A DNA stretch of 19,854 nucleotides from a virus. The stretch is from UHGV virus genome UHGV-0075699. One strand, 5' to 3'. Made by a program: the position numbers and the translations under genes. The notes under the pieces are model-generated. The model did no database searches, was not told the origin of the DNA, and saw only the letters and a list, made by a program, of their open reading frames with translations. This document shows positions 4,365 through 8,853 of the stretch, in pieces. Each line of letters starts with the position of its first letter. The first letter of the stretch is position 1.

Positions 4365-4772
4365 TTACCGGACAATTATTTCCATTTTTTGTCCTAGTAC
4401 CGATAGTGCTTTTTGAATGGTGTCGATCTTGGTGCTATGACCAAGAGACACGATTCGCTGTACCTCCTGAGGGCGCGTATTAATCATGCGGGCCAGTTCA
4501 GCGTTACTGGTATTGGTACTGACCAGGCGGTTTAGCAATAATACCTTCGCCGCCACGCTTGATGGCACTTCAACAAACGCCTCACCCTCTGCTGAAGGTG
4601 CGGGGATCTCCCGGCGGTCGTCAAAATAGAAATCAAACGCCGTAACCAGGGCATCCTGCGCCATTTCTAACGCTTCCTCCCTGGTTGCCCCTCCCGTCAT
4701 TGCCTCGGGGATATCTGGGAAAAATACCGCCCAGCCGGTTTCGTCATGCTCAAAATTTACCGGATATCTCAT
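4365..4772 (-). CDS. hicB: HicB antitoxin
   Basis: From the internal ATG at 4772 the protein reads MRYPVNFEHDETGWAVFFPDIPEAMTGGATREEALEMAQDALVTAFDFYFDD...LSVLGQKMEIIVR, matching the recalled E. coli HicB pattern (MRYPV...FVDIPEA...DAL.TAFDFYFED...). Directly downstream of hicA. Confidence 0.85.
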   Translation of the reverse strand: MRYPVNFEHDETGWAVFFPDIPEAMTGGATREEALEMAQDALVTAFDFYFDDRREIPAPSAEGEAFVEVPSSVAAKVLLLNRLVSTNTSNAELARMINTRPQEVQRIVSLGHSTKIDTIQKALSVLGQKMEIIVR

Positions 4773-4819
4773 ATTGATTAAGTGAATCTCCACGAGTACC
4801 AGCCCCGGAGGGCTGGTTT

Positions 4820-4996
4820 TTATTTGATACCGAGTTGCTTCAAAATTGCTTTTCTCAGCGGCTCCGGGATTTCCTTGCCCGGGTGTCTCGGCATTATCGT
4901 TTGCTTGCCGTTGAGGTAAATTTTTAAGTGGTTGGTACCATCTTTAAACTCTGCCCCTTGAGCTGCAAGCCAACGCCTGAACTCGCTTTGCTTCAC
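4820..4996 (-). CDS. hicA: HicA mRNA-interferase toxin
   Basis: 58-aa ORF (below the ORF-track size cutoff) found by manual translation: VKQSEFRRWLAAQGAEFKDGTNHLKIYLNGKQTIMPRHPGKEIPEPLRKAILKQLGIK, closely matching recalled E. coli HicA (MKQSEFRRWLESQG...NHLKL...MPRHP...EPLRKAILKQLGL). GTG start preceded by AGGAGGAGG. Confidence 0.85.
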   Translation of the reverse strand: MKQSEFRRWLAAQGAEFKDGTNHLKIYLNGKQTIMPRHPGKEIPEPLRKAILKQLGIK

Positions 4997-5026
4997 TCCT
5001 CCTCCTGTCTGTTTAACTTGAGATAA

Positions 5027-5080
5027 TAATAAACATTTTTGTTTATTAAATCAAGCTAAAATATAAACATTTTTGTTTAT
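5027..5080. promoter_or_regulatory. Two palindromic operator-like sites upstream of hicAB
   Basis: TAATAAACA-TTTT-TGTTTATTA (5027-5048, perfect 9-bp arms) and ATAAACA-TTTT-TGTTTAT (5063-5080), same core repeated about 35 bp apart, located between the late terminator and the hicA RBS. Confidence 0.5.
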
Positions 5081-5110
5081 CCAGAGAGAGGGAGAGTGCG
5101 AGATAAACCA

Positions 5111-5134
5111 ACAAAAAACCCCGCCGAAGCGAGG
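5111..5134 (-). terminator. Late-operon terminator (tR'-like) downstream of the late promoter
   Basis: Minus-sense RNA CCUCGC-UUCG-GCGGGG (6-bp stem, UUCG tetraloop) followed by UUUUUUGUUGG; plus coordinates 5119-5134 stem, 5113-5118 A-run. Confidence 0.6.
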
Positions 5135-5171
5135 TTATTTATAAAAATGGCAAGATATCAAATTACCTCAA

Positions 5172-5200
5172 AATATCGCTCATTTTGTTGCATTTTGCAA
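5172..5200 (-). promoter_or_regulatory. Candidate late promoter (pR'-like) immediately downstream of Q
   Basis: On the minus strand TTGCAA (-35, 5195-5200), 17-bp spacer, GATATT (-10, 5172-5177), about 25 nt after the Q stop and about 55 nt upstream of the terminator; the position is analogous to lambda pR'/qut. Confidence 0.4.
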
Positions 5201-5225
5201 GCCTGATTAAAGGAGATAGCCAACT

Positions 5226-5945
5226 TTAATCACATTTTTCCGTTCTGACCTCTTCTATTTGCTCATGATATGTGTAGATGTTCTGCAATGCGTTGTTATC
5301 CATCTCAATGAAAGCCGTTTTAAGTCGTTCCCAATGCCCGGCATAAACCCTTTTCCAGGTTGAGCGGTCAACTGAAACCATACGCGCCAGAGCTGCGCCA
5401 GCGTAGGTTTTATACGTCTCATTATTCCGGGTCGCTGCAACCTCCTGGCCAGCCAGCCAGACCAGCCCCACAAGCTTTTTTATTACTCTCGATTGGATCG
5501 CCCTGCCTACTTGATAGTTCTGATATTCAGTCCAGACGTGTTCACACATCAGCGTCTGGTAACGGAAATTTAGATCGAAGCCATAGCAATAGCGCACCCA
5601 TGCCTGGTGATGTTCTTCCAGCAGGTTTACAGCGCGCCTCCACGGTGAATAACCGAATTCAATATCATTGATGGGCGGCATTGGCCGGCGGCGGCTGCGG
5701 GTCTCCATCACATAAACTGGAGTAGTCAGTGCCTTAACCACCGACGGGCCACAACCAATCCCCCCTTCCAGATCGACAAGATTGCGAGAGCACCGCGGAT
5801 TTTTATTCTTATCTGCCGGTGGGTTCTCGCTGAATGCCTCGAGTTGTCCCTTTGTTGCGCCGGATAAATCCAACAACGCTCGACGCACTTCAATACGGGT
5901 ATATTCCAGGTTTTGTAGGTTCATACTGCTCAACGCTCCATACAC
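5226..5945 (-). CDS. Probable late antiterminator Q (Qin/82-type Phage_antitermQ-like)
   Basis: 239-aa ORF located exactly where Q sits in lambdoid phages (after the nin-region genes, directly before a promoter-terminator pair and the lysis cassette). Assignment rests mainly on position and size; start could be GTG 5945 or ATG 5924. Confidence 0.5.
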   Translation of the reverse strand: MYGALSSMNLQNLEYTRIEVRRALLDLSGATKGQLEAFSENPPADKNKNPRCSRNLVDLEGGIGCGPSVVKALTTPVYVMETRSRRRPMPPINDIEFGYSPWRRAVNLLEEHHQAWVRYCYGFDLNFRYQTLMCEHVWTEYQNYQVGRAIQSRVIKKLVGLVWLAGQEVAATRNNETYKTYAGAALARMVSVDRSTWKRVYAGHWERLKTAFIEMDNNALQNIYTYHEQIEEVRTEKCD

Positions 5946-7006
5946 TATGCTTTTATAATTGCGCCGATCGCCATAGCTCGATCAAGAAAACGGAACAGCA
6001 GCTCCAACTGCGTGCCATTCTTCTCTTCAAAGGCGTTAACATCGGCATGTAGCTCGTCGTGGCACTCTCTGCACAGAGGAAACACGAAGAGATCGTGGGC
6101 TTTGGTTGCGGTACCGCCCATGCCATGGCCGATGACATGATGCGGATCGTCAGCTGGTCTGCGGCAGCATTCGCATGGTTGATGCTTAACCCAGTCGGTA
6201 TAAGTCTTGCTTACCCAGCGACGGCGCTTTGGCCTGAGCATGAAAGATTCCGGCGATTCCGGATCGGCAGTCAGCGCAAGCCCCTTCGGCTGGTCCTGGT
6301 GCGCCTGGACATTTTCGTTGCGCCTGCATTGCCTTGCTGTGCCTGCAGCTGGCAGTTTCTCCTGCAGAATGCTGGTGGCCGGTAAAGTAGGCCGGATATC
6401 GCTTTCTTTATACACCGACAGGAACGGCTCTTCAGGCAACCCTAGACCACGCTGCGCCATCGTCTCCGTAATGGCATCGGCTATACCTGACTGAACTGCC
6501 CACCAGCACAACTCTGCGATTGAAAGAGAGCGTTCTTTGTTATAACCGAGCCCGATCAGCACAGTATCTATTACCCAGTCGACTACATTACGAAGTGCCA
6601 GCGCCTCGATAGCTGGAGTCGACTGCTCCCGCAGTTTATTGTCACAATGCCAGCACACCAGCAACGCACCAGGCGGATGTCGCATCGTTACCATCTCGTT
6701 ATGGTGGTACTCGGAATGAGGGTACTGGCACCTCTTCAGCCGGAGAAACAGCCACCGTTCAAGCGCTGGCAATCCACCAGCAGCACGAATCACACGCTCA
6801 TCGGAAAAGAATACGTGCAGGCTGGAATCCTCCGCTAAAGGTTGTCGGGCATCAGGGACACGACCAGATGGCAAGCGGGCCATATTTTGTGGTTCAGCCT
6901 CGACTAAAACACGCCCGGCAGAAAACAGGTGCATCAGATCACGGCCGGGCTTAAATAGAACCACGCCGAGGCGTGGCACAATCTCAGGGGTGAGTAACGC
7001 TCTCAT
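5945..7006 (-). CDS. Cys/His-rich nin-region protein, DUF968-like with HNH-like metal-binding C-terminus
   Basis: C-terminal region HQPCECCRRPADDPHHVIGHGMGG...FPLCRECHDELH has paired CxxC and His clusters typical of HNH/zinc-binding nucleases; a second Cys cluster (LLVCWHCDNK) lies mid-protein. Start overlaps the MTase stop. Confidence 0.45.
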   Translation of the reverse strand: MRALLTPEIVPRLGVVLFKPGRDLMHLFSAGRVLVEAEPQNMARLPSGRVPDARQPLAEDSSLHVFFSDERVIRAAGGLPALERWLFLRLKRCQYPHSEYHHNEMVTMRHPPGALLVCWHCDNKLREQSTPAIEALALRNVVDWVIDTVLIGLGYNKERSLSIAELCWWAVQSGIADAITETMAQRGLGLPEEPFLSVYKESDIRPTLPATSILQEKLPAAGTARQCRRNENVQAHQDQPKGLALTADPESPESFMLRPKRRRWVSKTYTDWVKHQPCECCRRPADDPHHVIGHGMGGTATKAHDLFVFPLCRECHDELHADVNAFEEKNGTQLELLFRFLDRAMAIGAIIKA

Positions 7007-8853
7007 GCAACCTCACGCCGACCAGAAACACAAATTTCAGGAAGGTTTGCTCTTACAATCGCCTCAGCAAAGGGCGGCGGCACGGCGTTTCCGCACCTGG
7101 CGACTTGTTTCTCTTTCGAGTACCTCTTGCCGCGGTAGTCACGATCAATGATGTACCAGTCAGGGAATCCCTGAGCGCGGTAAAGTTCATGCGGCTGCAG
7201 CATGCGCATTCCGATATCAACAATGCGGTAAACAATACCCTTAATCGTCACCAGTTCGCTGACGCCAAAAGAATTCAGGAACTCTTTGACCTGATCCGCC
7301 CGGCGCTCGTCGTAATCATTAGCCGCCAGCAGCGCGCGAACCTCTCCAACATGCTGACCTCCAGCGGTGATTGTCGGCATTGGTTCACTGGTGCGCTGGC
7401 CATCGCGGCAGGTACCGCGCAGTTTAACCAGATGAGACGTAACCAGCGCATGGTGATCGACTGTGGTAACTGAGTGTGCAGGATCGTCCAGTCCGACGCC
7501 CGGGCCGGTATAGTTCCCGCCGTAGTGTTTCGCCAAAAACGCAGTTGTTACGGCAAATTTATTGCCACCAGCTACAACTGTTCCCAGCGGTTTACGCAGA
7601 TTTAGAACGCGCGGCGACTGCCCTACACGTTCGCCATACCCCATCTGAATAAGTGTGGCCGCGACAAGCTGTGACTTCCCCCCGCCGCCAGCGGTAATTG
7701 TTGCGCTGGGTTCATCCGCCCGGTGGCCGATGCTGGCGCCGAACTGACGCGCGATAACTGGCGCAACCAGGCAGGAGCGAGACTGTTTAAGGATGGTATG
7801 AGCGGGTTTATTCAATGGCCGCGGTTTCGCCTGGTACTCGCTACCCCCATTACCTGCCAGGAATGGAACCAACGTCGGTAACGCCAGCGCATAACCGTGG
7901 GTTTTGGTGATGGTTTGCAGGGGATCGGCCAGCGACTGTCCGCGGAAGCAATCATATTTACCGCGTGTTGTGGTGTGGTTGCATTTGACGATGAACGGAT
8001 TATCACTTTCGACGACAAACCGCTGGATGCCGCGCGCTATCCGTTTCAACGTGTTAATGGCCAGCGGCTTTTTACGGTCAAATATCGATGGTGCAGGAAT
8101 AGACCAGTCGATACACTCAGCAGCTGTCCGCCATGGTGCCAAATTTCCGGATTTAACTGCTGCGGATTTAGGGTCACCGTGAGTGACTCCCGGCCAGGCA
8201 ATGGGTTTATCGTCACAACGCATCAACATGAAGAATCGCTTGCGGATCGTCGGAGCACCATAATCACTGGCACGCAGTTCGCGATATTCGACCTTATACC
8301 CGAGGCCAGCAATCAGTCGTTTGGCTTGTTTGCCATCCGAGGATATGCCGAGAAATTCGCAACATTCGTACAGAGCCGGGTGATCCGCAGGTATACCAGT
8401 GGAAAGCATTCCAACAAATGCCAGGAAGGTTTCACCAGAACGCTTAGGATCAGGACGCATCTCACATGAAAGCAGCGGGCCCCACGTTTTAAATTCTTCA
8501 ACATTTTCGAGAGCCATTACACGAGGGCGAACATCCAATGCCCAGCGAACAGATACCCAAGCCAGGCCACGAATCTCACGTTTTACCGGTTTACTGCCGC
8601 GCGCCTTTGAATAGTGGGTACAATCCGGGCTGAACCATGCAAACCAGACAGCCTTTCCACCTGTCGCAGCGACAGGGTCAACGTCAAAGACGTTTTCACA
8701 ATAATGAAGCGTGTCCGGGTGATTCGTCCGGTGCATGGCCACGGCGTTTTCGTCGTGGTTAATGGCAATATCAACGCTGCGGCCGATCGCCATTTCTATC
8801 CCGGTAGATGCCCCACCACCGCCAGCAAAATTATCAACAATCAGCTCACGCAT
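7003..8853 (-). CDS. DNA (cytosine-5)-methyltransferase with large variable/target-recognition region
   Basis: Motif I DNFAGGGGAS (AdoMet binding), motif IV SPDCTHYS (catalytic Pro-Cys), motif VI ENV, C-terminal CGNAVPPP (motif X). About 400 aa lie between motif VI and the C-terminal motifs. Confidence 0.85.
   Translation of the reverse strand: MRELIVDNFAGGGGASTGIEMAIGRSVDIAINHDENAVAMHRTNHPDTLHYCENVFDVDPVAATGGKAVWFAWFSPDCTHYSKARGSKPVKREIRGLAWVSVRWALDVRPRVMALENVEEFKTWGPLLSCEMRPDPKRSGETFLAFVGMLSTGIPADHPALYECCEFLGISSDGKQAKRLIAGLGYKVEYRELRASDYGAPTIRKRFFMLMRCDDKPIAWPGVTHGDPKSAAVKSGNLAPWRTAAECIDWSIPAPSIFDRKKPLAINTLKRIARGIQRFVVESDNPFIVKCNHTTTRGKYDCFRGQSLADPLQTITKTHGYALALPTLVPFLAGNGGSEYQAKPRPLNKPAHTILKQSRSCLVAPVIARQFGASIGHRADEPSATITAGGGGKSQLVAATLIQMGYGERVGQSPRVLNLRKPLGTVVAGGNKFAVTTAFLAKHYGGNYTGPGVGLDDPAHSVTTVDHHALVTSHLVKLRGTCRDGQRTSEPMPTITAGGQHVGEVRALLAANDYDERRADQVKEFLNSFGVSELVTIKGIVYRIVDIGMRMLQPHELYRAQGFPDWYIIDRDYRGKRYSKEKQVARCGNAVPPPFAEAIVRANLPEICVSGRREVA

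Follow-up and report, generated by a model that had tools for sequence, protein, structure and literature searches.

The minus strand of positions 5203-5111 very probably carries the late-gene control cassette (pR', qut and tR') of a lambdoid prophage with a Q antiterminator of the Q82 family, and the host of this prophage is probably Klebsiella. The cassette lies in a stretch of 19,854 nucleotides of the virus genome UHGV-0075699, hereafter called the window. A first-pass annotation had already described a unit of Q, late promoter and terminator in this place; all elements of the cassette were recovered at the coordinates given there, on the minus strand, and the reading is supported at the level of sequence, with the cassette following Q in 118 of 121 loci. 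For the most part nothing is changed by this, as a textbook regulatory unit has been annotated correctly. The survey of related loci, moreover, yields a consensus of the phage 82-type cassette over about 120 loci, and the cassette is a reliable marker for the annotation of late promoters in enterobacterial prophages. The same survey separates the constant parts read by sigma70 from a spacer that tracks the Q clade, which gives a concrete candidate for the binding site of the only Q family still without a solved structure.

The Q gene and its genomic position

The protein encoded upstream of the cassette (5945..5226, minus strand, 239 aa, with the stop codon TAA at 5228-5226) had been taken for Q, and database comparisons agree with this assignment. 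The open reading frame matches Pfam PF06323 (E = 3.9e-35), scoring 122 bits where the cut-off is 25 and spanning positions 1-216 of the 220 in the profile. It also matches PHROG 304, 'anti-termination protein Q-like' (E = 6.3e-70), and a tblastn search aligned 89% of the query with the Q protein of phage 82 (31.6% identity, E = 1e-27). PF06323 represents the Q82 family, one of three unrelated families of Q proteins (PMC9388147), and judged by these matches the frame encodes an antiterminator of that family. A protein of Klebsiella phage KpnBHU6 is 91% identical to the Q of the window, and a comparison with solved structures found no relative. The frame is opened by GTG 5945; the true start is likely the ATG at 5924 (M8), which is aligned with the starts of the relatives.

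Upstream of Q are CI-, Cro- and CII-like genes together with replication and methylase genes, and a holin and an endolysin follow downstream on the same strand. Q is hence found at the end of the early-right operon and before the lysis genes, which is the position of its family. The gene that abuts Q (5945-7006, minus strand) is of the DUF968/HNH type, and its stop overlaps the GTG of Q at 5945. It is present in 101 of the related loci, and the phiNP record labels a homologue as a second 'antitermination protein Q', probably a misannotation. A 616-aa C5 cytosine methylase is encoded upstream of the DUF968/HNH gene (7003-8853, minus strand).

Promoter elements and predicted start

The predicted pR' begins with the palindromic -35 element TTGCAA (5200-5195, minus strand; 4/6 to consensus), which starts exactly 25 nt after the Q stop, in line with the distance of about 25 nt given in the first-pass annotation. 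It is followed by a spacer of 17 nt, AATGCAACAAAATGAGC (5194-5178, minus strand), and by the -10 element GATATT (5177-5172, minus strand; 4/6 to consensus). After GATATT the minus strand continues with TTGAGGT, AATTTGATATCTTGCCATTTTTAT and AAAT into the terminator hairpin.

Taken alone, the two hexamers (8/12) are not above chance, as 56 sites of equal quality are found in the window, and because they match at only 8 of 12 positions the TTGCAA-17-GATATT pair is absent from the list of a consensus promoter scan with a threshold of 9/12. From these counts one could argue that the hexamers are fortuitous, that the hairpin behind them is a plain terminator of the early operon or an insulator of the hicAB genes that come next, and that the late promoter lies elsewhere, for instance before the holin; hicAB, moreover, has a better promoter of its own (TTGATT-17-TATTAT, 5054-5026, minus strand, 9/12), which the scan does list. 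We consider such a coincidence extremely improbable, however, because a block of about 90 nt that includes the 17-nt spacing and the -10-like element is kept ungapped in 119 loci and follows Q whatever cargo comes next, because the sequence after the U-tract is not conserved, and because the register of the block matches the pause signals of 82 pR'. The composite cassette read as a late promoter unit is indeed far above chance, since a leave-out profile, from which both the window and its nearest relative had been excluded, gave a single match in the window when both strands were searched (5203..5113, E = 1.2e-19).

The window and seven phages, phage 434 among them (an alignment of eight sequences), align from the -35 element to the U-tract without any gap. 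The Q proteins of the compared phages are 49-91% identical to that of the window, apart from the 82-like Q of phage 434 at 31%. TTGCAA and the 17-nt spacing are invariant in this alignment, and over the wider set of loci TTGCAA occupies the aligned -35 position in 115 of 119, while the -10 element is either GATATT or CATATT in 109 of 119. In 109 of the 119 loci the -10 element opens with G or C, and only nine have the consensus T there; this conserved departure from the consensus is possibly part of the Q site, or possibly keeps the promoter weak.

Transcription is predicted to start at 5164..5166 (minus strand). The register was taken from 82 pR' (initial AAA, GCC at +15-17) by way of an ungapped alignment with phage 434, gcAAATTTGGTATGTTG; the phage 82 record (X92588) ends at the Q stop, and phage 434 serves as the proxy for the region past Q. 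Position 5165, which aligns with +1 of the 82 and 434 pR', is a T in the window, and the start is therefore uncertain by 1-2 nt and the lengths given below by about 1 nt. Transcription probably begins at G 5166 or A 5164 instead.

Conservation of the cassette among Q relatives

Relatives of Q were collected from 32 bacterial genome loci, 80 viral contigs and phage records, 121 loci altogether. In the window and in 118 of the 121 loci, 119 sources in all, the profile has a single match, which lies downstream of Q and on its strand; among the three loci that gave no match, two have no DNA after Q. The distance between the Q stop and the -35 element is 30 nt in 83 loci, 25 nt in 13 loci including the window, and 2-3 nt in seven, whereas the -35 element overlaps the last Q codons in 12 loci, as in 82 and 434, and lies 1.1-2.3 kb away in another four. 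In these four loci the DNA between the Q stop and the cassette (L089:3239-4335, L025:3203-4715, L028:3176-5489 and L033:3203-5048) carries apparent defence genes, coding for DUF4760, STAND/AAA NTPase and DUF7380 plus DUF4209 proteins. The promoter cassette is therefore separable from Q.

Conservation is unevenly spread along the cassette, with a consensus fraction of 0.99 for the -35 element, 0.90 for the spacer, 0.93 for the -10 element, 0.86-0.87 for +6..+17 and 0.73 for the hairpin. It falls to 0.37 in the 40 nt after +55, so that the cassette ends abruptly, on its 3' side, with the terminator. Homology to the nearest phage also breaks off in this place, at about 5113. Small open reading frames were considered as an explanation of the conservation and rejected, as the only frames in 5100-5230 are 21-36 aa long and open with TTG or GTG. 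In two loci (L013 and L030) the promoter and spacer are retained, but similarity is lost from roughly the pause element onward and the hairpin is missing from its usual place; their cassettes look like recombinant or decayed forms.

The predicted pause element

Phage 82 pR' has an initial AAA, a -10-like pause element including an extended -10 and a GCC 'discriminator' at +15-17; an AT-rich run follows, with a pause at +25/26, no other terminal base being as effective as U (PMC5001585). The window has, in the corresponding register, the predicted sigma70-dependent pause element TGATATCTT plus GCC (5160-5149, minus strand). It is composed of an extended TG at 5160-5159 (+6/+7), the -10-like TATCTT at 5157-5152 (+9..+14) and GCC at 5151-5149 (+15-17), and is followed, again on the minus strand, by the AT-rich ATTTTTA at 5148-5142 (+18-24) and by the T/U at 5141 (+25), which would by homology be the position of pausing or Q loading. 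The exact sequence TGNTATNTTGCC occurs only once in the window.

These features are also widespread among the relatives. The TG is kept in 107 of 119 loci and a hexamer of the TAnnnT type in nearly all, the triplet at +15-17 is GCC in 81/119 and GTC in 27/119 (108 together), and the aligned +25 position is T in 107/119. As far as they can be read from these letters, the predicted pause features share the register of the published pause signals of phage 82 pR'. The likeness to an 82-type unit, which had earlier been put forward for comparison, is thus borne out by the presence of TGATATCTT-GCC-ATTTTTA-T at 5160-5141, with phage 434 as the proxy.

The terminator and the short leader

The predicted tR' (5136..5111, minus strand) is an intrinsic terminator with an 8-bp stem AACCTCGC/GCGGGGTT, a UUCG loop and a U-tract. 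The hairpin AACCTCGC-UUCG-GCGGGGUU occupies 5136-5117 and is followed by TTTTGTT; the U-run extends over 5118-5113, its first two residues also closing the stem, and a further U-rich tail reaches 5110. Its folding energy is -13.5 kcal/mol (z = -3.9; 0 of 200 shuffles were as stable), and a consensus terminator scan lists it on the minus strand. The UUCG-tetraloop terminator that had been noticed downstream of the promoter is accordingly found with its hairpin at +30..+49 and its U-tract running to about +55. The 3' end of the RNA is predicted near 5112-5110, and the terminated RNA would be about 53-56 nt long, compared with about 25 nt predicted for the paused RNA. The phrase 'very short predicted paused transcript' in the first-pass annotation conflates the terminated product with the paused one.

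The short leader is common in the relatives. The hairpin has its 3' end at +46..+53 in 79 of 87 distinct cassettes, with a mode of +49 that is also the value of the window, and among 70 distinct segments covering +26..+60, 65 form a predicted hairpin with a U-tract in the same place (median dG -12.0). The phage 434 record annotates a terminator that starts 49 nt after the Q stop. The compactness claimed for the unit is real in comparison with the 194-nt 6S RNA of lambda, but it is no peculiarity of the window: in this branch of the Q82 family short leaders are the rule, and the trait belongs to the family. Exceptions were found among more distant family members. Two E. coli prophages, L036 and L037, lack the hairpin at the usual position; the first terminator-like hairpin after it in L036 ends near +64, for a leader of roughly 70-75 nt. 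The leader of Klebsiella phage ST11-VIM1phi8.1 is about 95 nt long, and Gifsy-1, N15, PY54 and Vibrio phages lack such a cassette directly after Q.

Two versions of the stem occur in the relatives, AACCTCGC/GCGGGGTT and AAACCCGC/GCGGGTTT. RNAalifold returned no pairs on a MAFFT alignment of 50 terminator segments, in which the two stem versions align out of register, and stem conservation was judged by single-sequence folds. The UUCG tetraloop was rejected as a conserved feature, since the loops vary freely and UUCG is present in only a few relatives.

It had also been suggested that so short a distance restricts the point at which Q engages. This adds little: the +25 pause lies 5 nt before the hairpin, and because Q loads only at the pause in the systems that have been studied, the short distance imposes no obvious extra constraint.

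A different use of the short leader may be considered, in which selection acts mainly on the constitutive RNA of about 55 nt, as an sRNA that works in trans in lysogens like StxS. Transcripts from pR' that terminate at tR' give rise to StxS, a regulator of host genes, and short RNAs under antitermination control have been reported for phages 21, phi80, 82 and P22 (PMC7547250). The 56-nt RNA of the window folds at dG -14.8 and leaves +1..+23 unpaired, as an AU-rich 5' arm that is followed by the hairpin and a U-tail. The conservation of +1..+25, however, is fully accounted for by pause signals at the DNA level, and the window as a whole has no match to any Rfam family at the gathering thresholds; in the region itself, at E up to 1, only terminator-driven matches below threshold (such as istR and RsmY) appeared. 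A leader selected mainly as an sRNA, as proposed by analogy with StxS, seems quite unlikely to us. It would be compatible with the late-gene control cassette, which we retain as the preferred reading.

The promoter spacer as a candidate Q-binding element

In phage 82 the Q-binding element (QBE) is placed between the -35 and -10 elements, within -31..+30 of pR' (PMC4914094). The corresponding part of the window is the 17-nt spacer at 5194-5178. Its first 13 nt read AATGCAACAAAAT in 92 loci and differ from this by a single base in another 10; the Q proteins of all 102 loci are at least 53% identical to that of the window. Q proteins at 47-54% identity are paired with spacers of the type AACCGAACAAA.. 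or AACCCGACACTTT, and those of the 82/434 type with AAGTAGATTAAAA or AACTGGATTAAAA. The elements read by the host sigma70 are constant across the loci, while the spacer changes with the Q clade.

We infer from its position and from this co-variation that the spacer at 5178-5194 is a candidate QBE at which Q would bind. Shared descent could produce the same pattern, and the spacer of 82/434 is also coding. A qut site that overlaps the promoter, as had been expected from the first inspection, receives indirect support from the known location of the QBE (PMC4914094) and from the spacer that changes with the Q clade. The clade-specific AATGCAACAAAAT would define the DNA site for a branch of the Q82 family that has no solved structure.

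The same letters can also be read from the other strand. The plus strand has TTGTTGCATTTTGC at 5185-5198, which overlaps the self-complementary TTGCAA of the -35 element and fits a CII-type box (TTGT-N6-TTGC); the spacer might then serve, alone or in addition, to start an antisense transcript of the paQ type across Q that damps late expression during lysogenisation. The phage 434 record annotates a comparable site on the same TTGCAA as a CII site and the -35 element of paQ, and the window does encode a CII-like activator (PHROG 101). This protein is 185 aa long and of a different type from lambda CII, however, and TTGT-N6-TTGC is found twice in the window against 4.4 occurrences expected by chance. 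In addition, an acceptable -10 element is absent from the plus strand about 15 nt downstream, and the spacers of several Q clades are without the pattern. A CII-type function of the spacer is therefore, in our opinion, very improbable; it would be compatible with the late-gene control cassette, and we keep to the spacer as a candidate QBE.

A broader proposal is that the RNA of about 55 nt has been co-opted as a trans-acting sRNA of the Hfq type, as StxS was; separately from this, AATGCAACAAAAT would be the Q site of this branch. The proposal is unlikely in our estimate. If true, the RNA would represent a widespread prophage sRNA, as the cassette is present in at least 119 loci, and these span Klebsiella, Enterobacter, Kluyvera, Erwinia, Mixta, Serratia and Rahnella.

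The hicAB cargo and the downstream genes

Directly after tR' the window has a hicAB toxin-antitoxin cargo (4365..5080, minus strand; Pfam HicA_toxin and HicB_lk_antitox), composed of hicA (4996-4820, minus strand) and hicB (4793-4365, minus strand). Two identical 18-bp palindromes, ATAAACAAAAATGTTTAT, are located at 5063-5080 and 5029-5046 (0 expected), one of them overlapping the -10 element of the hicAB promoter; they are presumably HicB operators. The Q-modified polymerase would have to transcribe through this self-regulated module toward the lysis genes. Among the 119 loci, hicAB follows tR' in the window only, and this placement directly after tR' is the only feature specific to the window. 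What lies between tR' and the lysis genes varies among the loci, with methylases, small open reading frames and hicAB among the cargo. Judged from these sequences, cargo is exchanged at the end of the tR' terminator, which forms a junction of mosaic recombination.

A very stable hairpin at 4798-4817 (dG -17.5, z -4.6) lies within the 26 nt that separate the hicA stop from the hicB start. It is not a terminator of hicAB, because a T-run follows on the plus strand only, and it might be involved in RNA processing or stability, or in stopping antisense transcription. After hicB there is a second terminator-like hairpin with U6 (4344-4315, minus strand; dG -14.0, z -3.8), which overlaps the long, GTG-started version of the holin open reading frame and is absent from the list of the consensus terminator scan. 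The holin (about 4239-4009, minus strand; Pfam Phage_holin_2_1) and the endolysin (4007-3468, minus strand; Pfam Phage_lysozyme) follow.

Proposed mechanism

The mechanism is transferred from phage 82, to whose Q that of the window is only about 31% identical. The host sigma70 polymerase would initiate constitutively at the weak TTGCAA-17-GATATT promoter, and after about 21 nt sigma70 would bind again, to the TG-extended -10-like TGATATCTT in the transcribed region. The polymerase is then expected to pause near +25, aided by GCC at +15-17 and by the U at the end of the RNA. As long as Q is missing, the polymerase would escape from the pause, transcribe the hairpin at +30..+49, terminate in the U-tract and free the RNA of about 55 nt. 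After its level has risen, Q would bind the promoter spacer with the candidate QBE AATGCAACAAAAT, and this spacer-bound Q may join the paused complex and convert it into a terminator-resistant polymerase. Readthrough would then proceed over tR' into hicAB and its terminator (4344-4315) and further to the holin, the endolysin and later genes.

Comparison with known systems

The closest parallels are drawn with phages 82 and 434, with which the window has in common the Q family (PF06323), the -35 element TTGCAA and the 17-nt spacer. The TG-extended -10-like element at +6..+14, a triplet of the GCC type at +15-17, the AT-rich run and the U at +25 are likewise shared. With phage 434 the likeness extends to an intrinsic terminator that ends near +50, where the leader is about 55-60 nt long; a full-text literature search for t82 returned no match. 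On the other hand, the Q of the window is only about 31% identical to that of phage 82, and the 82/434 spacer reads AACTGGATTAAAA in contrast to the candidate QBE AATGCAACAAAAT of the window. Their -10 element is TATACT and not GATATT, and their promoter overlaps the last Q codons, whereas that of the window begins 25 nt after the Q stop. Moreover, transcription starts at AAA in phage 82, compared with a T at the aligned +1 of the window.

Phages of the 21/933W type resemble the window in their order of Q, pR', tR', cargo and lysis genes, the cargo being stx there and hicAB here, and in a short constitutive transcript from pR', which is a prediction for the window; their Q is of another family (PF06530). 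In Stx phages a leader of 258 nt gives rise to a 74-nt Hfq-binding RNA with demonstrated targets (PMC7547250), whereas the RNA of the window is predicted from the sequence alone.

Lambda differs from the window in its unrelated Q family (PF03589), in its pause at +16/17 and in a terminated RNA of 194 nt as opposed to the approximately 55 nt predicted here. The general arrangement is nevertheless shared: a constitutive promoter directly after Q, a promoter-proximal, sigma70-dependent pause where Q loads (both by prediction in the window), and a terminator before the lysis genes that releases a short RNA in lysogens, as would be expected for the window as well.
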